Shown here: positions 679 through 51,869 of the stretch, in pieces
How positions within the stretch are numbered: position 1 is the stretch's first letter
How the letters are laid out: every line of letters begins with the position of its first letter
Source of the DNA: Paraglomus brasilianum
Taxonomy: Eukaryota
Assembly: GCA_910592345.1 (NCBI GenBank)
Contig: CAJVPI010000106.1
Span: forward strand, 1 to 53,530
Direction: 5' to 3'
Length of the DNA stretch: 53,530 nt
The notes under the pieces: generated by a model
What the model saw: only the letters and a program-made list of their open reading frames with translations
Told to the model about the DNA's origin: nothing
Database searches by the model: none
Position numbers and translations under genes: made by a program

Positions 679-1777
679 ATGAATAGTAGTGATTTCGAAA
701 CATGCGGCATGAGCCGCTGAGACTGAGAACATTTTTTATGTTCTCAATGTGGAGTATTGTCAGAAACGAAATCCATACGTGTAGTTACTGTGCGAATTGT
801 GGAAAAATAGCCGCAAAAGAATTAGAAAAACATTTTACTTGACAGAATAGTGTCCCGGTTTATAATTGTCAGCACAATCCTAATGCACAGCCTGCAATGT
901 GTACAGTAAAAGTCTTAAAAGGTAGAGAAAATCGTTACTTAAAGCCTTAGTCACTGACTTAGGAAACAGTGTTTTTACTTACTCGGAGATTAGACCTAAT
1001 GCTAAGGGACATTGCGTCCTTGTTACCAAGAAGCATAATAAAGATGTTTGGGAAATAAGCCAAAGAGAATGAAACGATATGTTACCCGTTTTAAAAGATA
1101 ACATTGCCAGAATAAATAGAGTTTATGCACCCCTTGGCTTCTGAATCGGCATTCTGGTAGGGAAGTTTGGCCTTCAAAACAAAAATCACTTTTATTGCCG
1201 AATAGTTCTTAAATACCTGGTTAATGAGAGAACTTACTCAACTGCCAAAAGTTACAAAAAAATAAGATTGAAGAACAAAAACAGATAAGCGAAGTTTTGG
1301 AGACCAATTCAGAAGGAATTTATATCGAAACTAACAAAGTTTTTGCTAGACTTTGCAAAAGGCTACACAGTTATTGAAACAAAAAATTGTTTACCAAAAG
1401 ACATAAATGCTATCGATCTCGAAAATTGAGCTCAAATGGGTAAAGTGATGCAAGAGTGCATTAAAAAAAAAACTAAATTGCGACGACTATATGATCTCAA
1501 TGACTATTGAGCTGAGATGTTTGAAATTGAAAAATACGGAGGCGTTTGTTCTCAAAGAGCTGTTAATGAACTCTCAATCGCAATACAGCCTACATTTGAA
1601 CAAGACAGACACCGAAGTCGAGGAGAAGAAGGAAAAAGAGAAATGAGAGGCTCCATGGAAAATGAAAGAATTGCCGAAAAACTAAGAGATCCCGAAGCTT
1701 ATTATCGGAAGTGGGACAAAACTCCAAAGGTTGAATTAGAAAATCGACTTAATAAGATAGAGAAAGACCTTACTTAA
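679..1777 (+). pseudogene. Decayed HIT-family (histidine triad-like, probably tandem-domain) gene using UGA=Trp; probable Mollicutes-related endobacterial origin
   Basis: The frame from ~941 reads ...SEIRPNAKGHCVLVTKKHNKDVWEISQRE(TGA)NDMLPVLKDNIARINRVYAPLGF(TGA)IGILVGKFGLQNKNHFYCRIV. This matches the HIT pattern PxxxGHxLvxxKxH...GfxIg..G...Q...H with an eroded triad. A second similar block AKGYTVIETK...IDLEN(TGA)AQMG...DY(TGA)AEM runs into ORF 1517-1777. No introns; a frameshift and one TAA (1286) are present. Confidence 0.6.
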
Positions 1778-3814: not shown

Positions 3815-4499
3815 TGCTTTTCAGAACTGTTATAATTAGAATTTTTCATATACGGGTAATCCTACATATATATTTTATCATTATTGGTGTTTCATTATAT
3901 AGTTGGGCACTAGATTAGTTATAATGATTTCAATAATTGATGCCGAAATTAATACTCAAGATAGAAGTCACAATTAATCAACATTAACATCTTTACTTTT
4001 TATTAAAAACGCGGAATATCATCATATAAGTTTTTATCTACTCGCAATTTAAGTCTAATGCTGGTATTTGCCTACATCAAAAGCACTAATGAAGAATATT
4101 TAGGAGAAATTTCTTTTTTTCAATCATTCAAGCCATGCACCATCATGGTTTTTCTACAAAATTTTCCCATCTTCAGTACCAGCTGGCCAGTTAATATTCT
4201 CACAATGGATAGCAGTCAAGTTGACTGAAAGGGAGAAAGAGGCATCAGATGGAGTTACAACAGTACTAGACTATAGACATGTTATTGACTCTTGATTGAA
4301 GCAGTAATAGTAAAGGAAACTGGTTCTTTATATAACATAAACTTATAGACAAAAAATTCATCTACTTTTGTAAAGAGATTACTGTTTGATATTAATATGA
4401 CTGAAATGATTCAATATCAACATCTGCTTTTTATTTACTACTACTCAATTCTAGACAAAGGCATTACAACATAGAGATTATTTCTGATTCCTGGATCTC

Positions 4500-9400: not shown

Positions 9401-9415
9401 TCTCTAGTTTCCCAA

Positions 9416-18284: not shown

Positions 18285-19974
18285 GCTATCGCTATGTGAA
18301 CTGGAGCATTTAAATCACCTTCTAGGAAACAGGGTCTAGACATCTGCGAAATCTAAGCGGTAACGCAATACTAGCTTGCAACATTAGCAATTTATATCCT
18401 TCCCCGTCCGCCAAGTGAATCCAGAGTCGTCTTGAGAATATGTTTCTTTTAAACAAATCAAAAATCACAAACCCACCATTATTCCCCTTGTACGCACAAG
18501 CACAAATATATAACCTCTACACACAATTTACATTATTAACGACCAAACTACTAATCTTTATTGGCAAGTAAACCAATGAAAAGTGAGCGTTAGTAATGAG
18601 TTTTGCGTATTCGTCCCGATTTTGTTGAGAGGCGACAACTGGTGTATAAATGCCTGTCCGTAGTGAGCCGTGCAAATTCCATGACAAAATCTGGATTTCA
18701 TTTTTAACCCAATTACTCTGATCATTATCAGAATTCGCCGAATTCTTAATTCACCGAGTCGTGAATCGAGACACAAGATCTTATCCAACCATGCACAGTC
18801 TTTGCTCTTGCTGAGTCACATTTTTTAAATAAGGTTTTTTAGATCACAATAAAAGGAGAAATATCTATATCTATCGGTAAAATCATTCGTCAAATCGCTA
18901 ATCTCACATTATTCCCTGCATTTACAAAGGAACCTACAAGCATTCGTCAGAAAACCCAATTCATACTAGCATCATATTAGACAGGAGAACTTTTGTTCAA
19001 CTGCAGATCTGTAGACATTTCCCAAACTTTAGTCTTTAAACACCCATTGTAATTGGTACTTATTATTGCTCTACCATAAATGGTCGTTGATCATCCAAAT
19101 AAATCTTCATTGATGCAATTACTGCAGGTATGACGCAGACAGCTCTCACATCATTCCGTGAATTCAACGGCTGATTTATAGAAGACAACCAACGATTAAT
19201 GATCTTGGTCGCCGACATGCAAGCTTGTGTGCCTAGATTCTGATTCATACCTGCTGAAACTAACCTTTATCGTTATCAAAGGAGAATTAACATATCGTGC
19301 ATTAACAATGGAGGTAATGTTTATTTCTTTGAAAACCAATCAAATGAGCGCCGAATAAGTGCTTAAAATAAAGTCGATTCATTGGTGTTTTTGTGCTATC
19401 GATGTTAGAACTAATAGACGCAGAGCGAAGATCGGTATCCATTTAGTTATAATGCGGCATTGTTTACATATCTTTAGAATAAAGCTTGCTATAATGGTTG
19501 TAGTATAAAATGTTTGGTGGATATGCAATAATATTAAACACCATTCTTTTGCTTGCTTTCATTTCATTTGTCCATATTATTATGAATTGATTAAATTATG
19601 ACAAGACCTGGCTGTCTATGTCAAGCGGATGATAACGTCGAAAGAGAAAATAAATTGACCTCTACGTTTTCATTTTTAACACAGATGGAGGAGATAGAAT
19701 TATTATAGCCACATTCGGTTAATGGTAAAGCCATTGCAGTAGACGCACATCACTCCCATTATACATGCACGCTTATGCACTGCTATCACGAACAATGTAA
19801 ACATCATACGGTTGACAAATTGATTCGATCGCCAAAGACAACGTCCTTAAATTGTCATAATGGGTACGTCATTAGCGGTCACCACAGCTGTTGTGTTTGT
19901 AAAATCATTCAATTATAAATACCCAAGAGTCTTATAGTGAAGAGGAAAAGAAAGGAATAGCTTGCCACGGTCCA

Positions 19975-21288
19975 ATGAAGCCAATGACTTCGCCCAGAGC
20001 GTGTTCTTCTAACGATCTGTCTTCTATAACGACTCCCACATCTACGGTGCTTACTCCCGCCGAATATAATCTTGTACAATATCCACCTTACCATCACAAT
20101 GTCCCTCTCAATACTCTTCTGGATTGTCGTACCCGAAAAAGGTCTCCTCCCCGCGCAAAAAATTTATGGCTTATTTTCCGAATAGCTTTCGCAAGCAATC
20201 TGCGTGCCAAATTCCCCGAAAGATCTTATAATCTTAAAGAAATATCAAAGATGGCTAGTGAAGACTGGAAACGTCAGCCCTTTACGGTAAAGCGTTACTT
20301 TAACGCACTTTCCAAGTTGGCTTTGCAGCGTCATAAAATTATACATCCCGAATATACTTACAAGCCGAGAGGGAGAAGGCAGAAAAAGAAGTCCCAATTA
20401 TTGTTCATCGAGGTAAACGAAGATAAGATCATGACGCGTAGGAACTATAATAAGAACGCAAACAAAAAGCAAGAGAGCAGAAAAGACGAATGTGGTGAAT
20501 TTTGCAGTAGAGAGGTTGAGAATGAGTGTGGGTATGTGGAAGATATCAGTGAGCAATGTCAATCAGAGGCGAGTCAAGCTATTGCTGAGCAATATCCCGT
20601 AGATCAGGTTATATCTGAGCAATGTTGGTCAATGGATGATGTTATCTCTGAGGCTTATCAGACAGTAGATCAGGTCATCTCTGAGTCGTGTCAGCCAGTG
20701 GATCAGGCCACCTCTGGGTCGTATCAGCCAGTGGATCAGGTCATCTCTGGGTCGTATCAGACAGTGGATCAGGTAATTTTTGAGCCGTATCAGGCAATAA
20801 ATCATTCGGTCGCTGAGCGGTATCCGGTGGATCAGCTTGAATTTCCAATGAACCACGTTATCGCCGAGCAGTCTCCTTTGAGTCAAATTACAGCTGAACA
20901 GTATCCAGCAAATCAGGCCATAGTTGGACACTATCCAGTGAATTATGATATTGCTGAGCAATACCAGTCAGACGTGAATCAAATTATAGTTGAGCAACAC
21001 CCAGTGTATCAGTTTATGGCTGATCAGTATCGGTCGGAAATGGATCAGACTGTACTTAAGCAATATCTACTGGGCCATGATCAATATCCGGTGGATAAGC
21101 TTATACTTGAACGATTTCCAATGGATCAGGTAATGGCTGAGAAACAATCTATTGTAGAACAATATCTGCTTGATCAGGTTCTCGCCGAGTATCCAGTGGA
21201 TGGGCTTGTACTGCGACAATATCCTGTGGATCACACTTTAGAATCGCAGAATGAGTTATACGATCAGGTAATCAATCGGATCAGGTGA
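19975..21288 (+). CDS. MATA-type HMG-box transcription factor with C-terminal ~11-aa QYPVDQVIxE repeats
   Basis: PPRAKNLWLIFR...EISKMASEDWKRQPFTVKRYFNALSKLALQRHKIIHPEYTYKPR matches the MATA_HMG box signature. Intronless 437-aa ORF with TATAAATAC about 60 nt upstream. Confidence 0.9.
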   Translation: MKPMTSPRACSSNDLSSITTPTSTVLTPAEYNLVQYPPYHHNVPLNTLLDCRTRKRSPPRAKNLWLIFRIAFASNLRAKFPERSYNLKEISKMASEDWKRQPFTVKRYFNALSKLALQRHKIIHPEYTYKPRGRRQKKKSQLLFIEVNEDKIMTRRNYNKNANKKQESRKDECGEFCSREVENECGYVEDISEQCQSEASQAIAEQYPVDQVISEQCWSMDDVISEAYQTVDQVISESCQPVDQATSGSYQPVDQVISGSYQTVDQVIFEPYQAINHSVAERYPVDQLEFPMNHVIAEQSPLSQITAEQYPANQAIVGHYPVNYDIAEQYQSDVNQIIVEQHPVYQFMADQYRSEMDQTVLKQYLLGHDQYPVDKLILERFPMDQVMAEKQSIVEQYLLDQVLAEYPVDGLVLRQYPVDHTLESQNELYDQVINRIR

Positions 21289-32359: not shown

Positions 32360-34296
32360 TTATATAACAGTGTCTTCAGGATCGTAATTCTCGTTAATCA
32401 ACCGATATAGATACGATGGTGGATGGCCACCTCTACAAAACACCGAAATAATGACCGTAAGTTAGCAGTGAAACATCCATCACAATGCATACCGGCTCGG
32501 CACTCAATTTCTTCATCACTTACGTGTTTGTAATATATAAGTCTACTAGTTCAGGTGACACATAGTCATAATATGGATTCAAGATTGTAGCTTTATCAAC
32601 AAGATCGCCTACAAAGTGCAGAATAGATTAATTCTATCAAAAAGTTTATCCCAACGCCAGTCCGTTTCACCGACTTTTAACCAATCCTTCGTCACTATCA
32701 CACATTCCTCACCACTTACCTTCATCGAAACTCAGTACGTTTTCTGGAGACTCCAAATCATTAAATGAATCTTCATCATATAAGAATAGTGGGGACAGTT
32801 TGTAGAGACCCATGCAAACTACAACCGGTGTTGAGTGATGCTTAGCTGCTGCTGCCATGAGTCGCGTGCCACTTATTGCTATGAGTCCTCCATTAGCAAG
32901 CACTGTCAATTAAGAGAACCAATTGGTGGCATGCTTTAACTAACCGAACGATATATATAATTTACATTTTTGCTTCTGACTAACCAGCATGAGTTCCCAG
33001 AATGACTTTATTGACTCTCGACATGACTGCAAATATAGCAGAGTCTGATATTACAGTCGTGTCTATTCCCACTTGACATAACGATAAAGCAAGATCATGA
33101 CCCAGATATCTATCAATTATAATAATATAAGAAAAAGGTGTCGGAACCTAAAAAAAAAAACAAGTTATGGGGCACAATAATCCTAACCTGGGAGACGTTT
33201 CAGCGACAACTACAGAAAACTTGCGCTTTTTTGCTGCTGCTTTGAGGAATCCTTCCACAGTTTTTGAAGATCCAAGTGTCATTATTATCTCACTGTTTGT
33301 CAATGGTAATTCGAACAGAGATGAGAAAACGCATTTTTATACCAAAACCAAATCGATATACTCACTTTGTATGAATATGTTCCATAGCCTGGTCCCATAT
33401 ATTAACATACATATTCTCAAGCTCGTTAATCATTTCGTTTATCTCTTGTATGATATTTGGCTTCAAATGTATAGTTTGCAAGTTATGGAATAAACATTGT
33501 CACTATTTAGTTATTGTTGGCTATCAGTAAAAGCTAATTGACATTATAGTTGATTACATTCAAAAAAAAAAGGATATTTTGCATTCGCTCACGAACAGGC
33601 TGTCTCAATCCATTGTCGCCTAGTAAGTTTATCATCGATGAAGAAGAAGTATAGAATCCGGCAGACCTTGCACTTGAATCTTTAGCAGAATAGTCCAGTA
33701 AACTTGTACTTTGCTTGAAGACAGAATGAGACTGTGACGTGAAAAGATTTTTGCTACGAGTTTTATCATCTCTGTCATCATCATCATCATCTTCTTCTTT
33801 TTCTTCTTCTTCTTCTTCATGATCAGGATTCCCTAACTCTTCCGCGTGCTCCATAAATGATGCTTCTGTTGCTTCATCATTACTAGCATCTCGAATTACT
33901 CGTAGCACATGCCGCACTATATTTCCCACCGCCAGTTCTATTATTTAAAATAGGATCGCTTCAATTATTTCACAATGTAAGAGTTGTGACCTGATAACCA
34001 TTCTCTAGCCTTACCGCTCGGCTGAGCCTGCACCAACTTCCTGCCAACATTTTTTACTAATTTGATTAATGTGTCTACATCAGTCCATCGAGTAGTCGAG
34101 ATAACGGAGCGTAGGAGAAAGGCTGTTGCGAGTGATACTGAGAAGGAACCAGTTACCTGGCTAAAAATAAAAGCAGTATGTTAAGAATGATATAGTAAAC
34201 CGTTATGATAATTGTAAATTCCTTATCTAATTACCGTCTTCTTAGTCGCCCTACAAGGGATTCCGTTTGTGCTTTCAAGTCGCGTGAATTTGTCAT
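32360..34296 (-). CDS. GCD7: Translation initiation factor eIF2B beta subunit
   Basis: [16 protein letters not shown]...[16 protein letters not shown]...[22 protein letters not shown]...[27 protein letters not shown]...[12 protein letters not shown]...YKLSP...[30 protein letters not shown]. Includes one AT-AC intron. Confidence 0.95.
33469..33577 (-). other. U12-type (minor spliceosome) AT-AC intron in GCD7
   Basis: 5' splice site ATATCCTTTT, branch point TTCCATAAC about 13 nt before the terminal ...CTATAC. Removal restores the frame [17 protein letters not shown], while the nearest AG acceptor opens on an in-frame TGA. Confidence 0.9.
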
Positions 34297-35234
34297 TATA
34301 TTGCACTGCTCACTTTTTGTGGGATTGAATTTTATATAAATTCTTTCGGCCGATCATCACCATCAAAATTTCGCTGGTCGCGTGACTGTTATTGTGACAC
34401 AATTATCTACAAGTCAACTTACGTTTGTGCAGAAATTAATAAAACAAAGAGATCGTCTTTGCTATCAATGTATGAAATTTGCAGCAAATCTTCTTGCCAT
34501 TGATGTACTAACAACGGTTACTATTGCGATTAGTCTTACAATCCCAAATTTTCACGTCTAGTGGTGCTCTCATCACACTACTCCCCTATCAGATTTGGCA
34601 ATCGAGGTTGCTAAAATTAGCAATCAGGTAAAGGGTCGGTCCCATAAATGGTAATTATCAGTAATCGTGCATCAATCTTCTAATATGACATGTATGATTT
34701 ACCACTTTATTTGGCAAGAAATTACGAGTCCGGAACGAGCACTTTGTCTCGGGGCCCTTAGCTTTCAATTTACTACCAGAATAAAAAGTAACAGAAGCAC
34801 TGCAACAGCATTAAAATTTTATTCATTTTTAGGAAATTCTAAAACTAACTGTAAGGCGTCTCGCTCTCCTGAGAGTTGTTGCAAAATACTTTCTCCCTTA
34901 GTGTTAGGGATTACCGTTGAAAAAATTTCTTTGTAATAAATATCATCGCTAGTGCTAATTATAATGGTTGTGCGGTCGATTTTGTCAATCAAAACGTTAT
35001 GAAGATAGTTGTAAACTTCGTCCATATAGTAATTGTAATAGGGAAATGCAAAATTTACAATTATTGCAAAGTTTTTCGTTGGTCATAATATAGTTGTGTC
35101 ACAATAACAGTCACGCGACCTGCGAACAGTTTCACAGTCATCTAACTTGCTGCGTCGTTGTCGTCCGTTGTGCACACAAACTAACTTGCTGCGTTGTCTT
35201 GTTTTCATCAAACTACTACTCCGCAAATATAACA

Positions 35235-35846
35235 ATGTCCCTAAAAGATCTGAAAATCAAAACAAACATTGTCAAACGGTAGAGTAAAGTCGTTTATATT
35301 CACTATGAAGGGCTGATAGCATTAGTCTAACGTTGGTATGAATAAACAAATGCCTGCTGTTACCGGTGAGTGTTTAGTATCCATTCCGAATCGAAATCGT
35401 ATGCGACCGAGCTGGAATATCAGCAAAAACGAATTGACAAATTTATTGAAGAGAATAGGGACGAATATGACATTAAAAAACAAGTATGTAAATCAACACT
35501 GTTACTCGCTCAATGTTAAGCTCATTCTGTAACCCTTCTGTAATCATTCTATTGACTATTCCAGAAGGAAGTATTAGAGGAAACACTAAAGATGATCCCT
35601 GACTGTAAGAACAGGTTGCAAAAAGCATACCAAGAGTTACAAAATCTTGTGGTGAGTTGTGTTTAAAACATATTGATAGCTAAGATTGTTCAAATCACCA
35701 CCACTGTAGAGCACATGTGAACCAGTCTTCTAATCCTGCTTACGATCTTTGGTGTTGTTTATTTTCAGAATATAAACAATCCATCATGGGAGGGTACTGA
35801 TGAATTAGCAAAAGCAAAGGAGACACTGGAGACTGTCAAATTTTAG
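35235..35846 (+). CDS. RBL2: Tubulin-specific chaperone A (4 exons)
   Basis: MSLKDLKIKTNIVKR|IHSESKSYATELEYQQKRIDK...DEYDIKKQ|KEVLEETLKMIPDCKNRLQKAYQELQNLV|NINNPSWEGTDELAKAKETLETVKF*. Confidence 0.92.
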
Positions 35847-36067
35847 AAATATGGATTATAAGTGTTATTTAAATAAACTTATGTGACAATAGAGTCTCCA
35901 AATAAAAATTGTTCAATCAATTGTATTATTTGTACTCAATATTTATTGGTTTCTTTGATGTAAACATTACTTTCTATTGATAAGAGTAGAGGCATTCGCT
36001 GAGTTTAATTAGTAACCGAGACGTACGAGTCGTGAGTATGGAAAACCCAATTAAAGGCTATAAGTTT

Positions 36068-36110
36068 AGCAGAGCAGAGTAGGGGAGCAGAGTAGGGGAG
36101 CAGAGTAGGG
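36068..36110. repeat. Short tandem repeat (AGCAGAGTAGGGG) x~3
   Basis: Direct inspection. Confidence 0.7.
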
Positions 36111-38088
36111 TATTGCCGGCCTCGTTTGGAGAAGTTAATTCTCAAGGTTAATTGCCAATCGCTCGCCGTGGTAATAGTAATTAATTCGACAAATGTCATA
36201 GTCATCTAATGCCATTATAATCTTAAATCTCCTTGAGAGTGGTTAATAGTGTCCCATATCAAATACTTGAAAACAAATTAACTATAGAATCAAAATAAGT
36301 GTTAATAGTATTAGTATGCTTGATTTAACTGATAGTGTTGTCAGGCTTTCTTTACAAAGATAAAACCATTGATATTATAGCAACCCAAGAAGTCCCGTGA
36401 TTATTCCCGTGGCAATTACGATAATTAATTGTTTACTCTACACGCGTTTGTTATAGTCAGAAATACACTTATACCCTAATCGACATTGATCCCAACGGTA
36501 GAGAACCAAGGCATACTCGAGGACAAATTAATTATGTCTATGCATCACACCAAGTCGCCACACTCCGCTCGAAATTAGCCAAACGAGTCAATAGTCAACT
36601 GCTCTCCGTGATTGTCGACTCGACACAGTGCTCTTTGTTATTTTGGGCAGTACGAGTTGGAGCGTTTGGAGTCAGCAGTCCAGTGCATATCCATAACACA
36701 TTGATATTTTCAACACAATTGCCCTGCCCTGGATTACAACCATCACTGCTGTAAGACGTTTAAATGGTTGTCATGTAAGATAAATGGTTAAGACGTGTGT
36801 ACTTAATTAGGTGACCTTGAGATTGGTGCCTCAACTCCGAAAAGCCTTCCTTTGCCCGAATACTATGATTTTCTGTTGACATTGTTTGAGCTATCACAAT
36901 GTTACGTGTAATATATTAGAACTAGTATAAACAAACAATGCAAATGATATTGTTAACATGATTACTCACTCACGCTGCCTACCTGGAGGTTTTGCTCAGC
37001 ATAACCCTCTCTTTCTGTTACGTCCAGTTCATAAAACTATGCGCTCACTCATTCCATGTTATAGCTTAGACTAACCATTTTGGCATGCTTTGACGGAGGA
37101 AAATTATATACGGCATACAACAATATTATGACTCATGTCACGTAAACAAGAGGAATATGATTGTATTAAGTTTATTGTTCGAACCCAAGGGTGATCTTTT
37201 TAGCGCTGACTATTATTAACAATACGGCCTCTTATAAATACCATTCGATCAACCCATCAGATAATTAATCAAATCGAACAGCCCCACAAGCATATAAGTT
37301 GATATGAAAAGCGGTGAATATAGGGTAGAACAATGTTGTTGATGGGTTATTATGCACAAGATCAACGAGTTGAGAGTTTCACAATATAATGTATCGAGTC
37401 AATCCAGCTCGGGATAAGCACATTTACTGTATATACTATTGTTGCTGTAGTAGTAGAAAAAAGGTGCCTATTTCAAATTGGTAAAACAATAAACCATATT
37501 ATAATGATTGCCGATAATATTTCATTCAATAGTACGAAATGATCTACTCTAAAGCAACGATTTTGCGTTATCTCAATCGCCGAGTCAACTTCTGCGATAA
37601 TTTAATTTGCATCCGTTCGATTCCTTTGCATGGAAACAATAATTGCTATTATCGGGCTTTAGAGGCGTATCTAAGCTAAAGTATGGATCACTATGTTTAT
37701 ATTTCCAATCGCAAGTAGCTTAAAATTGGAGAACCGTTGATTAATCAATTTATTAATAACATTTGTTTAAGGAAAGAAAAACTACATTTAGTTTTCACAT
37801 CAATTGTAATTATATATACAAGAATCAAAAAGACCTCATGTCGATAAGATAAATTAGAGATAGACAGAGAGTATTCATATTGTGGATAGTCTCAAATGAG
37901 AGTAGTAAAATTAAAAAGTCCAGTCGTCTTTATACGACTATTAAGATTGTTCAGCGAATTTTTGCTTTTGATATTATAAATTTGGTTTCAATTAACAAAG
38001 TTCGATTATTAATCGTTACTGGCGCGCAACCAATATGCTCGAGATGCTTCTCCATCGATTTTCCGTCTGATAGCCAGAGGGCTCCATT

Positions 38089-38223
38089 TCACATGATCGT
38101 GCAGTTACTACCAGCCGGACCGTCGTTAGGATTAGATCCGTGCTTCTTGTAATTTGCCAGCAAATCGGCGACAGTATCGAGGATGGTGGTAGGTGAAGCG
38201 GTAGAGTTTGTTGTGGATTTCAT
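38089..38223 (-). CDS. Putative CaaX lipopeptide pheromone precursor 1 (44 aa: MKSTTNSTASPTTILDTVADLLANYKKHGSNPNDGPAGSNCTIM*)
   Basis: Small ORF ending in CTIM-stop, with dibasic KK before the conserved tail. Paralogous to 39829-39954 with mostly synonymous differences. TATAAATACA about 115 nt upstream. Confidence 0.85.
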   Translation of the reverse strand: MKSTTNSTASPTTILDTVADLLANYKKHGSNPNDGPAGSNCTIM

Positions 38224-39828
38224 TGTGATATATTATATATTATAGCAGGTAGAAGTCTTTTTGATTTTGTAATTCTTCGCTGAAGAATCTTGGTTTGAAT
38301 AATGAAAGACGGAAAGGTGGAAGTCGAAGTGTATTTATAGTGTCGATGCGACTAGGGCGTATACTAAATGGTCCATTGTCTTTATCATAGATATATGCAT
38401 TGCATTGTCAGAGTTGTCATTACGGCTAATGCATATGCTATTGTTCTCGATAGTAAGTGTGACACGAATGCAAATTTAGAACAATGTTAAGCGTATCGGC
38501 ACAAGAACAATAGGAAGCAAATGTCATGAGTTCGATACGAAACCATTATACGATTACAATTACATATCATAAATCGAAACCTGTTTGATAATCGATAGCA
38601 TTGTCCTATGGAAACTAGTATTGTTCCAACAATATTTTCGCAAAAAGGGATTGCATGCGGATGCAAGTCTACAAACGCAGTTTTGTGACAAAAACAACAT
38701 TTGCCTTCTTAATTTAGTTTCTAATATAAACTGATTGGATCCAATGTGTTGCGGTTCTTCGTCTGCTTCATATATTTCAGGGTGAACATGCTTCAGAAAA
38801 AGAGTGGAAATACGCCTTAAACTGCCCATTTTATCCACCACCGAATAAGGCAAAGAAAGTGATTTGCCGTAATACCGATACCCACTGTTACACATGAACA
38901 AATCCGGCCTGATTTAATGTTTGACAATTTTTAATTTGTTTGTTAACCATATTTATCATCTTAAAGATGACAGGCCGTGTAACATAGGTATTGACCGCAT
39001 ATTGTTTCAACCACACAATGGAGCATTCTTCTTCATAGGAGACGTTTCGACCGATTGTCGTCAAATGAAGCTGACAGTAATAGTGTCAAGTTTCCCGCAG
39101 GTTTCTTCATACGCCACCCCCGGACGATTTAGATGACTAATACAATTAAGTTGACGCCATTATCTTGCACACTGATCATATGAAAAATATGTGTACAAAT
39201 AAAATGCCATATGCCGTTTGACGACCATGACAATTTATGATTGTTGAGATAAAACAATTGACAGTTAAACATTAACCATTTGACGTCCACTTTAATGGTG
39301 GTAACCAAGGAAATTGAAAGTCTGGGCTATGAAATTCATAATGGTGGAGGTTCAATTCATAATAGTGGAGATTCAATTAATAATGGTGGAGATTCAATTC
39401 ATAATAGTGGAGATTCAATTCATAATGGGGAGATTCAATTCATAATAGTGGAGATTCAATTCATAATGGGGAGATTCAATTCATAATTTATTAATAAAGT
39501 TAATATATCAATCTCTGCTTCTCAAATTTATCAATAGCGAAATTGAGTACCGTCGGGCTGAATGCTAACAATTGTTTTATTGTAGTTGCGCTGCGGGCTG
39601 CTGAATAAACAACAATATTCATGGATCGCTATAATATACAAATATTGTAATGTATACAATTACAATGCATACTATTAGGCATAATAATAAGCGTTGCGTT
39701 CGATTTTCTATTCAATTCTTGTTAATTATAAATACAGTACGTACGCTACCGTATTTTAACAATACTTTTGCATTTGAGCGAAAATTTGATCTTTATCCAA
39801 CTAGTACGCATTCATCTACTTGATTAAA
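38224..39828. promoter_or_regulatory. Divergent promoter region with two TATAAATACA boxes and many ACAAT/ATTGT HMG-box-type sites
   Basis: TATA boxes at 38330-38339 (-) and 39727-39736 (+). About 25 ACAAT/ATTGT pentamers counted by eye, clustered near 38370-38635 and 39565-39765. Confidence 0.6.
39333..39487. repeat. Minisatellite, ~7.5 copies of a 20-21-bp unit AATTCATAAT(A/G)GTGGAGATTC
   Basis: Direct tandem units with no unique spacers. Confidence 0.9.
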
Positions 39829-39954
39829 ATGGACTCTGACAACAAATCCGCTGGAATTACTTTCGTTGCCATCACAAACCTCATTGCAGAATTGAAGAAA
39901 CACGGTTCTGATCCTAACGACGGTCCCGCGGGAAGCAATTGCACAATTATGTGA
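39829..39954 (+). CDS. Putative CaaX lipopeptide pheromone precursor 2 (41 aa: MDSDNKSAGITFVAITNLIAELKKHGSDPNDGPAGSNCTIM*)
   Basis: AAAATGG start context, CTIM-stop, KK site, TATAAATACA about 100 nt upstream; 18 of the last 19 residues identical to the paralogue. Confidence 0.85.
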   Translation: MDSDNKSAGITFVAITNLIAELKKHGSDPNDGPAGSNCTIM

Positions 39955-41323
39955 TAAACAACCCCCTTTCTATTATTATTATGGCGTACATCAAATTGGG
40001 TTGAAAGAGAGCAGGATAACCTGGAACTTAAACATATTCTTCACCATAAATTGAACTATAACTCAACTTCAGGGAGAGGATTGTCGTCAATAGTTCGATT
40101 GAGAGGCTTTGTTGACTCACTAATCTGAACATAAATTTATCAAATAATATTAATTCTATTTACCAATTAATACATAGTCGATGATATTATATTTAACCAA
40201 TCTATCGTTTGTATGTTTTGCTTAATCTACATTTTTACTCGTGTGAATTAATAAAGTCCCTGTATAAGTTTATTCGTGGCATGTAATATTTAGTATCGTT
40301 TAAACTGTTAGACATTAAGTTTTTTTGAGAATATAATAAATTGTGTAAAGACATACTGTATTTAGTTTTTTGGTAAAACAAAAAATTCTAAAGTTATGTC
40401 CAATCACAAAAGTTGTGCCGTTATGCCTTTTGTCACATACCGAAAGATGTGCGTTCTTTATTGGCTGCCCTAACGTTTGAACACTAAAAATGCACTTTCC
40501 GTTACCTACTGACCATCTGTTATAATGAGCATTTGATTGGTTTCAAAACTCTTTACTAGGTAGCAAAATTGTGTTGCACATTTGTAGGATGATCTTTTGT
40601 AAAGTGTCAGTGGGAGAGCAATCGGTAATCAACTTGTCCAAACGAGGTGGCAACTCTCCTCCATGAATTACAGGTATTGACCTTTTAGCTGGGCTTTAAT
40701 ACTCACGATCGATTCGTATGCGTTAATCCTGGAATGCTAATTAACTTCGAGTTACTACGTCGATTTTTACCGTGGGATAAAATATCTGGTAGCCCTATCG
40801 GTCGAGGTAACTCAAACAGTTCCGCTCTACCAGCACAATTACTTATTATAGTATCGAAGAGCTACTCAATAAGACGGAGTTGATTAAAGAAATTGATCCT
40901 AAAAGTCGAGAATTCGAGGGAGGGTAATGTTCGCTAGTGAATATTACAACATTTCTATCGTTTCATTACAGCATTAGCTGCTGATCTAATTGTAGGATTA
41001 ATTGATGTGCATTGTGGGAGGCATTTATTTCACCGACAGTGACAGTCATTTCACGTGACACATTGTTTATCGCACTTATCATTGGTTTTCGATGAAATTT
41101 GATGAACCCACATTGTACGTCTTTCTATTTTAAGCTGATTCATTGCTCTGACAATTAATAAATTTTACTTGTCTTAAAAAAGCGTGCATAAAATATTATA
41201 CAAAAAATTCAATCAGCTTTCTAGTTTCGCTAGTTTCGCTACACATCAGTATTTGCAAAATATATATCATTACGCGTATAAATATATTATATAATCGCCT
41301 CCAGCCCGCAAGACACAATGACA

Positions 41324-44300
41324 TTACTGATTAAAACTTTCGAATTCTTCATTGCGGCGATTATTAGTCGCCAATGTGTGTCCAGTACCTGAAAGTAGTA
41401 AATAGGTAATTAATTAGAATTGCGACTTGTTCCTTCTTGAAATCATTGTAATCAAATAAGTATATTCACCGCCGATCACTGCATTGCAATCTGGGCATCT
41501 GCTCTCTACCACTGCACCTCCGCAGTCGGCAATAGTATAAGTGTGTCCATTAGGACAAGTATACCTAAATTGAGTAACGATTTGAATAAGCTAACGCTCG
41601 CGTTTATGAAAAGAATTAGAATATGTAAGTTTGTATTATGCCTACCAGTGCCCACTACCTCGCAAGTCTTCACTCATTGCTTGGAATATCTGCAATTTTT
41701 CCGTTTTTGTCAACACCCCTCCTTTTGCTAAATTCGTAAGTTCATTGATTTCCTCAATAGTATCCTCCATTCTTTTTTCGCATTGGCTTTGAAAGTGTTC
41801 AGCCTGAAGAATAGGAAAGATTTCATGGACGAGGGTTTCAAATCTTTGGAGGATTTCTTTTAATTCGTTAATTATCTTCTTCCTCTCTGCTTTTCCAGTA
41901 GCATCGTTTGGATCTTCGGCTATTTTTCTATGTTTAAACCTATACCGGTAATGTCGACATTGCACTTCTGCTAGTTCAAGGGTAGCTGACACATATTGCT
42001 TATAGTATTTTGTTTCCTGTGCTACTTTGATTATAACTTGCAGATGTGACATAGTCGATTGAAGAATAAATAAAGCAAAATTAATCCAACCAGGTTTAGT
42101 GTCAAGACTTCTGTTATCTTGGTCATTATCTGATAACGCTTGAATTATATAATCAACTTCTTGAAATAATATTTTTTGAACGTTAATTATAATAAAAAAT
42201 ATGTCTAGATAACATCGACGATCAATAACTGGAAGTACCATTCCTACTCCGTGAAGAGATTCACGTTGTAATACAAGTATTGTGCTATCAGCATCATCTT
42301 CTGCAATTCCCATATTCCTGATGGTCTCAATAATATAATCCATTTCAATTAATCTTGATCTATATAAACTTGCTACAGCTGCTTCAAATGCCGCTTTCCA
42401 AGGTGGGCTCTTAGTTTCAGCAAGTAGATGCGAAAGACTTGCATATATTTGAATCAAAATATTAGTATTCTTGATCCAGTAATCGTTATGAGGTTGAGGT
42501 ATTCCGTAACTCTTGCGGAGGTTTGTGAATTCATTCAGTTTGGCCAGTTCTTTGACATTGGAATCTCCTGGAATTTTAAAAACTCCAGATGACTTTTCAT
42601 TTGAATTAAGATAAATGGGTTTCTTGATATTTGTGAGAAATTTTTCTCGATTTGCGTCTAATGTACTGATACTTATTTGAATTCTTTCATTATAACTGTG
42701 CAATAGGCTCCTATACTTCGACAAGAATTTCTTATTTTGTATGTCAAGTATTGCCTTTTTGATAGGCCTTCCATATCTTCTTATATTAGTAATTGGACGT
42801 CGACATAGTGGACATCTATGAATGCTTCCTAACTCGTTTGGAAGAGTACGAACTCCAGTCCAAATCTTCTCAAAGTCTGCCTCACCATCAATACCATCAT
42901 AAAATCTGTTCATCTCCAATTGCTGGTCAAGATAAGCCATAGTAAATGCATGCTCACATTCTAGAACAATCATCCTATTAATGTCCCAATCAACTTCGCC
43001 AAACTCCTCTAACATTGCCGCATTAGATGTTTGCTTTCGTATATCGGGTAGGGCACAGATGGGGCAGAATTCAACAGGAACACATTCTTCTCCACATACA
43101 CCAGGACATTGGTGATCACAAGGTAAGAGTTTCTCGCATCGGTGGTTGCATGGCAGTCGAATACAAGGAGCTCCACAACTGAGCGAACATTTGCCTTGAT
43201 GTTTACATTGCCAATCACATGGCTCGGAACAGACATTGCAAGGTTCGGAGCATCTTTTGTTACATGTAGAATGTCTACATCTAATCATGCATTTTCCGCT
43301 GCATAGTGGACAGGGCTTTCCATCGTGACATGCACTCGTACAACGATGTTCACAATACAAATTACGTCCGCACACTTGCTTGCATGGGAAATGATTAGTT
43401 TTTGTCACATGACCGTTTTCATCTAATGTAGCTTCTTTCGTGGCTGATGTGCGGATAGATCTGCGCTGACATTCCTCACAGTTCGAAGCGCAAGAATGAC
43501 TACATCCTAACGGCATTCCACATTTTTGACTGCATTTAACGTCTTCTATCGCTTCAAAACAATGCCTTTTTTGTTGGTGGCCACACCTGGGGAGAACGCA
43601 ATCAATAAGCACCTCACATTTAATTAACGTCGGATCACATGCCTGATAACAAGGGGCTTTCTTTTTAATATGTCCACAAGGTAATTCGACATTATTGATA
43701 GTTAGATTACAGTTCCCACATGGCTCTCCACAAGTCTTTGGACATGCGTGTCGACATGATTCGTGTAGTCTCTGACATGGTTTATAGCACATGACACCAA
43801 TGTGATCAGGATCATCGTAGTGGCATTTGTACTGGCATATGTGACCACATTTCAGGGTGAATCCGCATGGCTCCTGGCATCCGCCATCAGGTGCGAATTC
43901 GGAAAACTGTTCAGGCTTTTCGACGAAATTAATTGTATCAGGATGTCTTTCGCATTGCAATGGGAATGCACTGCCTAGTTGACCACGTTCTCTGAGTGTA
44001 TTGATTACTGTTGGCCACATTTTCATTCCCTCCCGTTCTGCTTTCTCAACAAGGAGATTGGCATTTCCCAGTAAGAACATACCATGTTTAGCACGAGATA
44101 ATAGCACATTGGTACGGTTCTTTGATTTCAAGAAGCCAATAGTGGCTTTGCTGCTATATTGAGATATATTTCGGACGAGTGATATAATGACTATTGTTGC
44201 CTCTTCTCCTTGATAGTTGTCAATGGTCCGCAGTGTAACTTGTCTCGTCAGTGATTTTTTTAATGCTGTGGGTATAGCTACCGAAGATGAGGCTTCGTTG

Positions 44301-47300
44301 GTAGAATCAGCTTCTACAAGCTCATCTTCAGTCATCATAGCAATCTGCTCGTTGTCTCTTTCATCAATGATGACTACAAATTGCTTGTTTAGCGCATCTC
44401 TTATCTTAATCATCTGCCCCAAATAGGGCGTCAACACGGCAATGTCACCATCTTTATCATAGCCATTTCTAACAAAGTATTTTACCATTTCGACAACCAT
44501 CTTCACTTCGAATGAATTTGAATGGGATTGCATCGCAAATTGATTACTACCAGCTGCGTCTTCTGGATTCATATGATCAAAGAAGAAAAGATTATACGGT
44601 GTTCCACGCACAGGAGGGTATTTCGTTGTAACTTCATGATCTATGAGATCAGGGTACAGAGTGTCCCTTACTAGGTCAGCTATTTCGCCACGCATCCGTC
44701 TTTGAGTTAACAATTTGACCATCGGCTTTTTCTCGTTTACCAAACGTTCAAATAGGGACCTGTCGAGCGCATAGTTCTTACCGACGTCGGAGTCTAAACT
44801 AAGGCCGTATGTTGCCACGTGTGGTCTAAGTTGCAAGTGATCACCAATGAGAATGAGATGCTGTGTCTCATTCAATGGTGCAAGGATGTGAGCTTCCAAT
44901 ACTTCGCCTGCTTCCTCACATACGATTATACGTGGAGCTACTGAACGTATCAGCGATTGGAATTTGGCCGCTCCATTTGTAGTCATCCCAATTACTTGAG
45001 CGGATTTGAGTATTTCCTTTCGAACTCCATCGTGAATATCTGGAATATTGTTGGGGCATAGACAACAAAGATTAACATGGTATGAAAGGCAATGATGACA
45101 ATTACACTTATTATTGTTCAGCGAGTAGCTCATGAAGGCATACTATTCAATTACTTACTATCAACTTCCTTCCGTTTCTCTGTGTGTTTTTTAACCAACT
45201 CCGCTAACTTCTCAATAATCTCTTCATTTATCAATTTTCTCCAATGGTCATGTAATCTCCTTCGCTCAATAATACTCATATCCCACACACTACTCCCATA
45301 ATTGCATTCCTCAAGCAAAACGTCCAAAGGTCTGTCTGTTTCTGGTATTTGTATTTGTAATGCTTGCATCAAAAATTGATTGTTTGATGATTCAGAATTC
45401 GTTGCTTCTTCGTCAATCATTGTTATATCTTCGTCTTGATTTTGTAAAAGCTCAAACGGATTTTCGGTATTTTTATTTTTCCCTTTTCCCCGTTTACGTT
45501 CTCTCTTTTCTATTTCAATATTTTTCAGACGTTCAATAGTCTGCTGCTTGCGTCTGATGTCAGTCCCATGAACCCATTGAGCAAATAGCGATCGCGGCTC
45601 GCGGCCCCTCCCAGCACCGACATACTCCCATTCTTCATTATCATCTTGATTTACTTTCCTATTATTAAACTCAGTTGCGTAACTATTATTAGGATCGAAG
45701 TCTTCTTCTTCCAATTCGATAAATTCAGAATGAAAATCTACCGGGCCCTCCGTCAGTTGCTGATAAACTGAGTTGTGATCGACCATGAGCAACATTTCTA
45801 CATCCTTTCGACATATCAAATTTGTGGTTAGATTAATACCGTTGAGGATGTGATGTCAACATGTGACTACGGCTACTTACGCTCCAATCCATTGTCTTGC
45901 GAGCCAAACGCTCAGTCAACACATGCGCTTCTTTCGATAAAGTCTCCAATTCGCTATAGGCAGCCCCCAACATACGCCTTAACAGAGAAGTAATTCATAA
46001 ATATAACGTAGTGGAAGTAAAATGTGCGGTGTAGGGTATAATGTAGGTTCATATCTAGTTTTAAAATGTGTACTCATAATTACTTACCTATGTTCAGGGG
46101 ATTTTTGTTGTTTGCGAGAGCGTTCTTCCAAAGCAAATGGTTTGATCTCTTCCGATTTCGATCGACTTCCCAATCGAACAACGTCTTTCACCCCAACATG
46201 TAAGAGATTTTCAAGGAACTGATCCAGTGCATGATTAGTGAAGCCTGTTACGATAACAAGAACGGTTATGAAGAGAAGTTATACAGCTTGCTAGCAAATC
46301 CGTTGTTGATAATTACATATTGTCAATACGGGACCAATGGAAGCTCTCTTCTGATTTGATTCATCCAAAAGAACTTTCATCAATTCTACTCCGACGTATG
46401 TCTTTGGTATTAAATAAGAGCGTTAGAATGTCTAAAACGTAAATTTATAGAACTGGGCGTTGACCAACCTTTCCGGTACCGGGTGGCCCTGAAGACAGTA
46501 TGATTAGGATTGATTAGAGACGAGTCTAACTCGGTATAAAGGAAAGACTGCATATATGTAAACTCAATATGTAATCAGTATGTTACTATACCTTCGATCA
46601 AAGCAATTTCCCTGCACAGAGAATAGGTTAGTGCCTCGGCCTGACTTTCATCCAGCTTGCCTGATTGGACTAATGTCTGCACAGCTGAGTTCCGTGAAAG
46701 TTCATTATCAGGCTCTAACGTTAAAGCTGTCTTCTTATCAAGTAATGCCGACAGATCGAATTTAAAACCAGGCGCGCGTGCGTACAACGGTGGTTCGAGT
46801 TTGGCGGTCAGTTCTTCTTCTGTTGCCGGAGCAAGATGTCGAGAAAACGGGAGTGCCCCCGGACTGAAATCTTGGAGCGCTTTCAATATGTGAACATAGG
46901 ATTCGAAGTAAACTCCAGTTGATTCTACCATAAATCGATCAGGAAGTTTAGGCCCAGTCTCCGATAGCCTGCGGGCAAGCGTCATATCCTCTAAAACGAT
47001 TGGATAGATCGAACTTTCGATAAAATGGACGCCGATTATCGCTTCATCTGCCTTCTCTGACAGCGAGTTTTCATTTCTTTCAGCAATTACTAACGTATGG
47101 ATAATACGTAAGTTTCATAAACTACTGTACAGAACATCAACTTATTGTATACTCACCGCCGAAATAAAGTGTAAAGGCATTCTTAGAACTCACGATGTCC
47201 CGGTCCTTTTCATAGTCATTAGCCCATAACACACAAATTAAACTCCCATGCATTAATTTTCTTGATCTCTCCCAATAAAACTTTCTCTGTTCTCCAGTTT

Positions 47301-48799
47301 TAATAACTTTCGGCTGTTTAAATCCTACTCGAACTAGAAACCCTCTGTTTTTATTCACTTGGATACCATTAAACTTGACATTCGCATAAACATTCAAGTC
47401 TCCACCGCTGTGGTTTCCTTTATCTGATTTAAATCTTCCACCCTTGTCTAATAGTTTCGCTATCTGTGATTTGTCCTTGTCTAGATCTGCCAAGAAATCA
47501 TGAAGACCAATGCGTAATGGATTTAACATGTCTTCACGTACGAGTCGAAATTGAGTGTCTAACAGACGGTCTGGACCGGGTTCGAGAAAGTGAGGAGTGG
47601 TGGGGAGAGTTGAAGGAAGAAAGGGATTGCGTTTGCAGAGAATTTCATCTGCAGTGGGGATTACGCGTATTTCTTGAAAGTTGACTGCATCATTGTCATG
47701 GCGTTTCCCATGCTTAGAGTGTTCACCTAAGGAATACGAAAAAGAAGGTAAATCTCTCATTATACCAGAAAGTACATAAGATGATGGCCATACCTGGTGG
47801 ATCATACGACCGACATAAGTCCAACTGCATGGCTGCAGTTATAGCTTCTTTGTTCAACCCAACATTTTCGAACATTATCTTTGTAACTTCCATCCCCCTC
47901 TCTAGGCTTCTCCTTCCCGAATCCAATATTTTTTTCATTTTGTTCAGTTCCTTGTCTATAACTGTAAAGCAGTATGATCCCAGACCGTCACTACTCGATA
48001 AAATATCTCCATACATAAGACCGTTCGACAAAAATTCTTTCCATGCAATAGTTGCCCGTTCTAATCTTCCTCCTATCTTCTGTAATGTCACGTTCATCCT
48101 AGCTTCTTTGATTCTGCCGAGTATTTCATTCACAAATCGTACAAGCACTAAAAGTATCTGAGCATAACTAACAGGTATGAACGCATTTACGTTGAGTAGT
48201 TCCTGCTCTGTCGTAGACGTGTCTTTAAGTGATTTCCTGCGTATTAACTCGTCTACACAACGCAACATTTGATCATGAACGATGGTGTCCACGTATGTAT
48301 ATACGGTCGAATAGATTATATTCACTTGCTTTTCGAGAGTCGATTCTCGAACGCCGTTCCTAACAAGCAGTGCTATGAAAGGTAACATTACAGACTGGAA
48401 GGATACCGATCTATTGCCGACTCCCGCATCAACGTTCATTGATGTATTATTGCATATGAATCTTATCCTAGGTATCCCTTTGTCACTCGACAACTTATTC
48501 ACCACCTCTTCGGCCAATGGGTTGCCGGGGGATGAGGCCATAAGACATGAATTAATAAATGATCTCATATCAGTATGACTCCAATCTTCTTCCCTCCTGA
48601 GTAGATATGGCCACTGTTTTTCGGATATATTAAATTCTGGCGGAAAAAACACAAGCGAGTCACTGCCACCACTAGCAAGAACAGATGACTGAAAGTTTTC
48701 AATGAGTTGGTGCTGATAATTCCTGAAGCCTATGGCTTTCATGGCTTGACGCTCCTCTCTGGTGAATGCCTGTCGTTGTCGTAGTGGTTGTTGTTGTTG

Positions 48800-48836
<37 letters not shown>

Positions 48837-49024
48837 GGTTGTTGTTGTCGTAGTGGTTGTTGTTGTAATTGTTGTTGTTGTTGCTGCTGCTGCTGCTGCT
48901 GTTGCCGCTGCTGTTGCCGCCGCCGCCACTGTTGCTGCTGTTGACGCTGTTGTTGTGGAGTGGAAGAACTAGACCCTTGCCTTGGATCCTGTGCATTTGG
49001 AGGGTTGTTGTTTCTTTTCACCAT
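41324..49024 (-). CDS. ZNFX1: ZNFX1/SAD-3/Hrr1/RnhA-like UPF1-family (SF1) RNA helicase with NF-X1 zinc fingers, RING-like and RZ-type finger
   Basis: RHDNDAVNFQEIRVIPTADEI, LDTQFRLVREDM, ALIEG|PPGTGK|TYVG, CFTNHALDQFL, GMTTNGAAK, VCEEAGEVLE, LIGDHLQLRP, QRRMR, TIDNYQGEE, VLLSRAKHG, Cys-rich repeats, C-terminal GHW|YTCPNGHTYTIADCGG..SRCPDC..IGG|TGH. Stop at 41324-41326. Confidence 0.93.
48770..48956 (-). repeat. Coding CAG/CAA polyglutamine tract in the helicase N-terminus
   Basis: QQQRQQQQQWRRRQQQ...QQQQPLRQRQ within ORF 47723-49024. Confidence 0.9.
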
Positions 49025-51869
49025 TTCTTAGTTATTTAAGTTATGTCCTAAGGTTTTTGCTACACTCGAAATGATCGAGTATGCAATGTTGGTTATGAGT
49101 ATTTTGGATGATGACATTGCTCTTATCATTATCCTGCGGTTATGGCAATCGGAATCGCCCAACATTGTCATCTTTAAAGGGATGCGTGTAACGTAATATA
49201 ATTGCAGATATGTGAAAATTTACCCCCATTGCAGTCACATCACATAATAAACATAAAATGATTGGAATGCAAGTCACAGATGTCGGAAAGTTGGGCATCA
49301 AAAGATGCACAATAATTAATATGTTAGTAATCCATCAACGATTGAAGTAATAAAAGGGTCGTTAGCAATCGTAAGTGATAGAACAGTGAGATACAATATT
49401 TAAAGCGCATAGAAACACCAAATCGAAGCAGTTCATTAACCGTGCTGTTAAACGATCTTTGAAAAGCAATTGGGGCCCAAATACTCCAATACATCCTCAA
49501 ATGGTTACGCTGTGCTGTAATGAATGGAAAAACAAATACTGAGAAGTATTACATATTTATTGTTAGCTTCAACTGGCGTGGCTTATGCCAATTGATACAA
49601 ACTTCACAAGGCCATTATTAACAGACTCAATATTCCTATACCGATAGACAAGGACTTTGCATACACACACCGAAAGTTTCGCTCGCTTATATAATCCCCC
49701 TTGACAAGCATATGTTGACGAACAGAAGAAACTCTTAATTAGTTGGTTTCGATTTTTTGAATAATATCGTCGTTTTAATGGAAAATGGGTAAATCTTCGA
49801 ACAGAACTCGTGTAAAGACTGTTTTATTCAAATTGAGTCACTAAATTATAAGACAATGGATATTGTAAATTCACTCTCTATTAATGAATCAGCGTGATTA
49901 CAAAGCATCGACCCGATATTAACTAAAATGTAAAGTTATCTATCGATTTGTGCATATGGTACCTTTTTTTGGTCTTGCTGATTTTACTACTTATATCTCT
50001 CCTAGAGCAGAGCCGGCTGCTAAGTTGAAGTCTAGGTTTAATCTAAAACACGTTTATTATTATTGACACTTAAATCGTATGTGCCAACCTGTCTAACTTT
50101 ATCGCCTTTTTTCAACATATTATAGCAGAAACCACTCATTGCATCATATCGCGTCGGTAAGTCGGCGATACGGGAATCTATCAACCTAAAAGGAACAAAA
50201 CGCTTGAACATTTGTAAAAAACTGTATAATATATTAATTACAACATTTTCTAAGGCCATCGAAAGTATGTGGGAGTCTTGGAAAAGGCTTCGTTGTCAAG
50301 TAGTGTTAATACGCAGTGGACATATTAATATTTGTCGGTGAAATGATCGTTGGAGTACTTATACTAGGATTCTCACGTAGCGACGATCTACAAAATGTTT
50401 GCAAACGCATGTTGTATTACGCCAAACACACTATCATTGCCTCAGTTCTTACCATAAGTGATGTCAATGCAGAGACGTAAACTCCAAGCATTCGATAAGC
50501 CGTGCCAATATGCTGTACGTAAGTTCCAAACATTGAAATCATGATTTCGAATGGATACTGTCATCACTCTTAAATATCGACAAACATTAAAATCGAACGT
50601 TCCCGAATTGAATTAAACCGATTCGTAAAAATAACCAATGTCAACTGATCAAACAAATAAACTATCAAAAAAGGCCAAGCTATCTCGAAGATGACGGGGA
50701 TAATGTAATCGATATTGTTATCACTAGACTATTAGACTATTGACGCTGATAGCATTACGATTGGACAACATCTCCTCGGAAAGGTAACAACACAAACTAA
50801 CGTTACCGAAAGCGGTTATACTCTGACGCTTCAGGTCAATTCGACATAATTTTAACCTAATCATAAGAGTACAAGACACATAAATATCAAATAAACATTG
50901 ATACATCAATGACTGCATTATCAACCATTGAACTAACAACACGACACTTTCCTTTTTCAAATCAACAATAAAGAAATAAAATGTTACTCTTTATATTGCC
51001 AATATTTGTTATGAAATACTTGTCCATCTATAAAAATTCAACATAGTCGTTTAAAGTATCAAGTTGTATGCGCGATATTTGATTTTCATTGTAAATTGTG
51101 CGTTGTCCATCAACGCTGGCTGTCTACAATAAAGGCAGGCAGGCTAAACCATTACCCTCTAGTTACGAGATAGAGGAGGGGAAGAAATAACAAAGTTACT
51201 TGGCATCCCGTGATAAATGAATGTCAATGGAATATTTATAACGCATTGCCCTTGTGTAATATCGAGTGGCTGATTGATTGTGCCAAATATTGTGACGGCC
51301 GATGCTGATTTATGATCCGTGACCGATTATCTGCGCAATAGTAATAGTGCCAAGCCTATTAAAAAAGAAACATTATTCAAATAATGCCAAAAAAACTGTA
51401 ATTACGTGCTTTCACCCGAAATACCAACCTAAAAATATTACAAGACGCGAGGAAGACCTAAAAAGGTATCGTCTACTGTTATCTGGCTAAGGGACAGTTC
51501 CTTATTTTATAGATAGTATGTTGGTTTTGAGTTCAAATATTGGTACCATGTGAGAAGCCAGAAATCACATACATTGTGACTCTATTTTGTTGAAGCCAGT
51601 AAGTCTCTATTTTTCTAATAAGATCTGACAATGAGTGACCTCAATTACAAGAATAGGCCAGGGTTTATCCTAAGAATATGTTTCATTTAATTAGAATCAC
51701 ATTAGCAAAACAACAAGGGCAAAACCGCTTCATACTTTTCCATCATATTCATTCCTACGCACCTGAGGTTTTCTCGCAGGTTGAAGAGATGCATCTGCCT
51801 TTTTCCCTCCTCCAGGCGTTCTTGACGCTTTAATCAAAGATATAAGTAATAGACACGTACTAGAATACA

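Follow-up and report, generated by a model that had tools for sequence, protein, structure and literature searches.

Arbuscular mycorrhizal fungi (AMF) are supposedly asexual, and cryptic sex has long been debated in these fungi, in which a sexual or fusion programme has never been observed. Genes for the STE3 receptor and the STE6 transporter were identified in Rhizophagus irregularis and Glomus cerebriforme, and no pheromone gene was found (Halary 2013, PMC3834313). A hallmark of a-class pheromones is that their genes occur in multiple copies and are conserved mainly in the mature part; in ascomycetes they are cleaved by Axl1/Ste23-type proteases at Asn↓X and have a mature length of 5–20 residues (bioRxiv 2021.09.28.462209). 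The lipopeptide pheromones of basidiomycetes are sensed by STE3-like receptors (PMC5871698), which have been described as occurring predominantly in Dikarya (bioRxiv 2024.11.25.625238) and, as a family, as generally conserved in fungi (bioRxiv 546531). In a co-inoculation study of AMF, pheromone genes were reported not to be upregulated (Mateus 2020, PMC7490403). Our literature search, in which subscription journals were thinly covered and an earlier description is possible, found no AMF pheromone precursor described after 2013. Nothing on AMF pheromone precursors was found in PMC9620820, bioRxiv 2026.01.14.699541 or PMC5871698, and searches with the peptide words GPAGSNC, NPNDGP and DGPAGS, taken from the core described below, returned unrelated work only.

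The window, by which we mean the whole 53,530-nt stretch of the Paraglomus brasilianum contig CAJVPI010000106.1 (assembly GCA_910592345.1), is an intron-rich fungal sequence with a GC content of ~36%; Paraglomus is an AMF. It contains two divergent single-exon ORFs, A and B, each of which terminates in CTIM-stop (Table 1), with an in-frame stop located two codons 5' of the ATG in gene A. A loose CaaX-ORF pattern matched three times in the window, as compared to a mean of 0.5 in 30 shuffled sequences; a CaaX ORF by itself is weak evidence, and the case is carried by the gene pair and its family. Observed directly were the ORFs, purifying selection on the core and the CaaX box, a multi-copy family, and the presence of the genes in contigs from RNA libraries. 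A and B are paralogous and likely encode precursors of a farnesylated lipopeptide of ~14 residues that would be exported and sensed by STE3 as a partner-recognition pheromone, a reading to which we assign a probability of roughly 0.58.

Table 1. Positions of the gene pair and associated features in the window.
Feature	Position	Strand	Remarks
Gene A, CaaX precursor MKSTTNSTASPTTILDTVADLLANYKKHGSNPNDGPAGSNCTIM	38089..38223	-	single exon, 44 aa; RNA-library contigs X8, X13, X16, X19
Predicted mature peptide of A, HGSNPNDGPAGSNC	38101..38142	-	N-terminus placed at the conservation boundary
CaaX box CTIM of A	38092..38103	-	from sequence; prenylation and cleavage predicted (PMC9231725 supplement)
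Gene B, CaaX precursor MDSDNKSAGITFVAITNLIAELKKHGSDPNDGPAGSNCTIM	39829..39954	+	single exon, 41 aa; RNA-library contigs X8, X13
Predicted mature peptide of B, HGSDPNDGPAGSNC	39901..39942	+	conservation boundary
CaaX box CTIM of B	39940..39951	+	from sequence; prenylation and cleavage predicted (PMC9231725 supplement)
Shared divergent upstream region, AACAAT-enriched	38224..39828	.	12 sites vs 2.9 in shuffles
TATA-like box TATAAATA	38332..38339	-	116 nt upstream of the ATG of A
TATA-like box TATAAATA	39727..39734	+	102 nt upstream of the ATG of B
Minisatellite in the spacer (21-bp unit, 7.5 copies)	39333..39487	.	no role assigned
Contig cover of gene A	37728..38228	-	RNA-library contigs
Contig cover of gene B or a close copy	39794..40323	+	RNA-library contigs
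GT..AG intron, 106 nt, upstream of A	38438..38543	-	skipped in one contig (38345-38696), depth 3.3

We compared the codons of the two genes to each other and to those of their homologs. The initial annotation had counted nine synonymous differences and a single non-synonymous one (AAT/GAT) over the last 19 sense codons of A and B, and exactly these differences were recovered. They correspond to a Nei-Gojobori pN/pS of 0.029 (binomial P = 5.8e-6), with nine of the ten located at the third codon position (P = 3.6e-4), P values that are optimistic because the 19-codon boundary was picked after seeing the data. Synonymous divergence has reached saturation (pS 0.76), and identity falls to 43% over the 30 nt past the stop, such that the similarity at the DNA level ends at the stop codon; the 88-nt "inverted repeat" is therefore conserved coding sequence. 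Together with the finding that the CaaX frame is the best conserved of all six, these values bear out the suggestion of an old duplication under constraint at the protein level, as opposed to an inverted repeat in the DNA. The pattern was repeated in the homologs: among seven sequences, variation across the last 17 codons affects 15 of the third positions, 6 of the first and 2 of the second. Furthermore, a Ser codon alternates between AGY and TCT among the family members, a switch that requires constraint on the protein.

Upstream of the KK pair, the two proteins had been said to barely align, but Leu and Ala are retained and a hydrophobic pattern is common to both, although pN/pS in this segment is 0.65-0.86. 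The proposal that selection is confined to the mature peptide proved too strict, as the aaX tail is also constrained (Met in 8/8 and Ile/Val in 8/8 sequences) and the pro-regions of two metagenome loci, L002 and L003, have a pN/pS of 0.14 (P = 0.015). Constraint on the pro-region is weak, but not absent.

Besides the pair in the window, the family has members among metagenome loci (five), ENA proteins (two) and gene models of P. brasilianum (two), with the common core [YH]G[ST][ND]P[NK]DGPAGSNC-x[IV]M-stop. This core is rich in Gly, Pro, Asn and Ser, as are some basidiomycete lipopeptide pheromones. In the eight complete sequences, ten residues are invariant, the ATG is located 40-51 codons from the stop, and all eight end in C-x-[IV]-M-stop. 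The metagenome scan, which demanded an 8-residue core word and did not demand x[IV]M-stop, matched 96 stretches, of which seven passed tblastn. Because of this core word, DGPAGSNC is invariant partly by design of the search, which is not the case for [YH]G[ST][ND]P, x[IV]M-stop, the ORF length or the synonymous divergence. One of the loci (L001) is a 99.9% identical copy of gene B, and L002-L006 contain intact ORFs of 40-51 aa that end in YG[ST]NPNDGPAGSNC-x[IV]M-stop. The seventh, L007, was rejected as a chance match, with stops that flank a match of 10 residues and no CaaX box. Also rejected were matches of 12-13 residues within longer ORFs without a CaaX box in two viral contigs (L008 and L009, 2 of 11 stretches) and in bacterial genomes (L010 and L011).

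Three of the loci, L004 (2566-2721), L005 (1009-1164) and L006 (32-187), constitute another subfamily, whose 51-aa ORF has a hydrophobic N-terminal extension and an internal Met, a possible alternative start codon, that lines up with the first residue of gene B. The contig of L005 also carries an ORF for a bacterial-type PolB exonuclease (264-902, minus strand) that adjoins the fungal-type gene, and is probably chimeric upstream.

A profile search returned five matches among 379 candidates, which were gene A, the ENA proteins P0002 and P0003, and the P. brasilianum models P0004 and, with a weak match (E = 2.0), P0005. P0002 corresponds to L002 plus a tail, which probably reflects a TGA read through by the gene caller, and P0003 has an Asn/Lys change within the core. 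Residues 1-33 of P0004 are those of L003. Both P0004 and P0005 track the family to GPA/GPAG, after which they diverge and lose the CaaX end. In A and L003 a donor-like GT is present at the corresponding codon, and the RNA contigs of the window genes run unspliced across it; we therefore infer that the CaaX box was probably lost from these two models by a mis-called intron. Models of this kind, devoid of a CaaX box, are a possible reason for the family having escaped annotation.

With gene A as the query, a phmmer-type search recovered only A itself. A search with B against 1.84 billion representatives gave four matches, gene A and three long repeat proteins, which were ankyrin-like or helix-turn-helix-like by eye and were rejected as chance. 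No Pfam match was obtained for seven of seven members at E values up to 10, the pheromone families included, and the ESM Atlas gave no usable match. Searches that demanded core words yielded family members from Paraglomus and unnamed samples, and from no other source.

The 14-residue estimate for the mature peptide, counted from His/Tyr, fits the family since strong conservation begins at this column, and it was kept for that reason and not because of KK. The pairs that precede His/Tyr in the eight sequences are KK, KK, TN, KI, KS, KN, KS and KN; only the first Lys recurs (7/8), KK is absent from six of the eight, and the role of KK as a cleavage signal, as had been suggested, is not supported. 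Cleavage at KK by Kex2 was rejected, as KK is not conserved, there is a single unit and no signal peptide is evident in A or B. Nor were the features of a KEX2-type (alpha-type) repeat precursor found, with one unit per ORF and polar N-termini in A and B. An Asn↓Tyr site is located right before the core in three of the eight sequences (L002, L005 and P0003), by a rule that derives from ascomycetes. Gene A has Asn↓Tyr three residues further upstream, which would yield a 17-mer, and none directly before His, and no Asn↓X site is present at the core boundary in B, L003, L004 or L006. No protease site is shared by all of the family members.

For all five variants of the CaaX box in the family (CTIM, CSIM, CNIM, CIIM and CNVM), the SVM and Freq methods in the supplement to PMC9231725 predict prenylation and cleavage, with negative FlexPepBind scores for four of the five. 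Short ORFs that end in CaaX-stop and are predicted substrates for prenylation and cleavage, as in a-class precursors, are thus what was found. For comparison, ~15% of 8000 Cxxx motifs were predicted to be cleaved and an a-factor with CSIM supported mating in yeast (PMC9231725), and in a Ras reporter Ile at a2 and Met at X were the two positive patterns (PMC10320760).

Of 24 sequencing runs listed, 20 contain part of the stretch, and the contig evidence comes from six of these. Runs X13-X20, of which X14, X15, X17, X18 and X20 were left out, share 0.08-0.18 of the words of the stretch; X13, X16 and X19 are recorded as RNA, while X8 is guessed to be RNA, but holds a spliced contig. Both ORFs are covered by RNA-library contigs from these four runs, which represent four studies and carry no information on strand or level, and judging from these contigs both genes look expressed, as expected of a-class precursor genes. 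The gene A contigs of two studies end at 37728, a weak hint of the 3' end of its RNA. There is no RNA-library contig cover at 38712-39793, and the DNA runs X5 and X6 cover 39500-39966; a contig hole of this kind proves nothing. The contig that skips the intron upstream of A is possibly a long 5' UTR isoform of A, or else a separate or upstream regulatory RNA; a 111-aa ORF without a Pfam match is located on the same strand at 38560-38895.

Among the ORF variants listed, three of three changes in the core are synonymous (38116, 38137 and 39921), and two of two changes in the pro-region are non-synonymous (L15F and V18I), both of which match the residues of gene B at the same offset. Two different in-frame insertions of 6 nt near the N-terminus of A are also among them. 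Contigs from X8 and X13 match the B ORF with five differences and diverge directly past its stop codon, which suggests another copy or a relative.

In the spacer between the two genes, the observed number of AACAAT sites was reached in none of 1000 dinucleotide shuffles (0/1000 reach 12), with AACAAT being one of seven motifs tried. Upstream of L003, L004 and L002 there are 6, 6 and 3 sites, numbers reached in 10, 23 and 43 of 1000 shuffles, respectively, and TATA-like boxes are also present in L002-L005, at -95 to -167. AACAAT is not enriched upstream of L005, nor in five of six control stretches. It is enriched at 34000-37700 (15 vs 5.2, 0/1000 shuffles), downstream of A and around an exon for tubulin cofactor A (35370-35516), and the enrichment is therefore not specific to promoters. 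The same side of gene A also has a perfect triple repeat of 13 bp (36072-36110).

The AACAAT motif resembles the HMG-box core, A(A/T)CAA(A/T)G, but a G follows at only 14 of 56 ACAAT sites. An HMG-box gene (PF00505) is located 17 kb from the pair (19903-21288, plus strand) and is a candidate regulator of the pair; the part that encodes its C-terminus contains a 33-bp tandem repeat (20633-20793). AMF carry many HMG-box genes. In Podospora, pheromone genes are controlled by HMG factors (PMC3730723), and by analogy control of the pair by HMG-box factors through the AACAAT sites may be taken as a lead only.

Other neighbors identified by Pfam include a kinase gene with RWD, kinase and anticodon-binding domains, EFR3, CIA2, an IF-2B-family gene, tubulin cofactor A (TBCA), and a ZNFX1-like helicase; the names "GCN2-like" for the RWD kinase gene and "MATA-type" for the HMG-box gene are a reading of ours. 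The helicase gene (41417-49027, minus strand), which is located directly downstream of B, encodes a zinc finger of the RZ type and a long tract rich in Gln. The CIA2 exon shares 98% identity with Paraglomus occultum (3 differences over ~151 residues) and at most 91% with other AMF among the best 120 of 4184 matches, which places the source of the window in Paraglomus. The STE3 Pfam domain was not detected in the 108 scanned of 165 stop-to-stop frames (at least 45 aa, unannotated stretches of the window; the 57 unscanned lie mostly in 3700-9900), nor in 20 longer or selected fragments of the window, and the pair is therefore not visibly a linked pheromone/receptor locus.

That A and B give rise to a released lipopeptide signal of some kind, used either in mating and partner recognition or in vegetative growth and self-signaling, is very likely. 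The same lipopeptide biochemistry could serve a signal other than mating, an autocrine or vegetative one used throughout the genus in hyphal self-fusion, density sensing or symbiotic development and perceived via STE3 or another GPCR. The core is almost invariant across copies with saturated synonymous sites, no sign of mating-type alleles was seen among these deeply diverged copies, and no linked receptor was found in the scanned frames of the window, which speaks for self-signaling and against the pheromone reading; the genes are also present in plant and rhizosphere RNA libraries from four studies, and a role in vegetative growth as well has been described for mfa-1 of N. crassa (PMC5871698). 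However, a-class pheromones of yeasts are likewise multi-copy and conserved within clades (bioRxiv 2021.09.28.462209), the core variants H/Y, S/T, N/D and N/K could carry specificity, and a divergent allele could not be found because the searches, which demanded core words, were blind to it. On balance, we regard such a signal without a role in mating as less likely than a pheromone.

It is improbable that the products remain uncleaved, as farnesyl-anchored intracellular microproteins in which an amphipathic N-terminal helix and a conserved tail bind a partner at the membrane. Such a protein would suit the absence of a protease site conserved across the family and the hydrophobic periodicity of the pro-region, where the hydrophobic moment is 0.31-0.50 in five of the eight sequences, but it is just 0.12-0.27 in L004-L006, and the helix-like part varies freely and tolerates indels, in contrast to the Gly/Pro/Asn-rich tail, which hardly changes; nor did the seven members match any Pfam family. 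The idea that the conserved element is a DNA or RNA element, or the product of an antisense frame, with the CaaX ORF being incidental, is largely refuted. On the antisense strand, a shadow frame stays open across the core in seven of seven sequences, with 9 of 17 columns invariant, and the Logan contigs are silent on the RNA strand. Nevertheless, the sense frame, which was the most conserved in the six-frame comparison, has 13 of 18 columns invariant and a shared stop where similarity ends, whereas the antisense frames span 20-99 codons with no common start or length, and the TATA-like boxes and the GT..AG intron are oriented in the sense direction.

The partner-recognition pheromone thus remains our preferred reading. 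In this scheme, the Cys of the precursor would be farnesylated, aaX removed and the Cys methylated, as predicted from yeast data. By analogy with yeast a-factor, the N-terminus may be trimmed before His/Tyr by a cytosolic protease, the lipopeptide exported by a STE6-type ABC transporter and its signal relayed through STE3 and a MAPK cascade, with the gene pair under the control of HMG-box factors acting through the AACAAT sites. For AMF, receptor, transporter and MAPK genes have been reported without a ligand (PMC3834313), and A and B supply a candidate. There is an even chance that they represent the first peptide pheromone genes to be identified in AMF and encode the ligand of the orphan AMF STE3 receptor. 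If so, the pairing of a farnesylated pheromone with STE3 would predate the split between Dikarya and Glomeromycota, and a synthesizable molecule would be at hand to trigger a sexual or fusion programme in AMF. A defined lipopeptide of 14 residues can be synthesized, which makes the question of cryptic sex in AMF directly testable on the fungus or on STE3 in yeast.

Finally, we compared the pair to known systems. Like MFA1 and MFA2, the a-factor genes of S. cerevisiae, and other ascomycete a-class genes, A and B are short single-exon ORFs with a C-terminal CaaX box that occur in multiple copies, with a predicted mature length within 5-20 residues and conservation concentrated between the putative processing site and the stop (bioRxiv 2021.09.28.462209), the conservation of DGPAGSNC being partly demanded by the search. 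Unlike these genes, the Paraglomus family has no Pfam pheromone match and an Asn↓X site before the core in only 3/8 sequences, and its host belongs to the Glomeromycota, outside Dikarya. Like the basidiomycete P/R (B/a) loci, such as mfa1/mfa2 of Ustilago and the B locus of Coprinopsis, where several CaaX precursors are often encoded at one locus (PMC5871698), the pair encodes CaaX precursors, but no STE3 was found in the scanned frames of the window and no allelic diversification was seen, and the neighbors are of a housekeeping type (TBCA, IF-2B family, CIA2, EFR3, ZNFX1-like). The AMF pathway hypothesized by Halary 2013 predicted a farnesylated a-type ligand for STE3/STE6 (PMC3834313), and A and B are of the expected form; its receptors come from R. 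irregularis and G. cerebriforme, whereas the named members of the family described here are from Paraglomus only. As judged from its sequence, the pair has the features of a-class pheromone precursors, except for a conserved Asn site.
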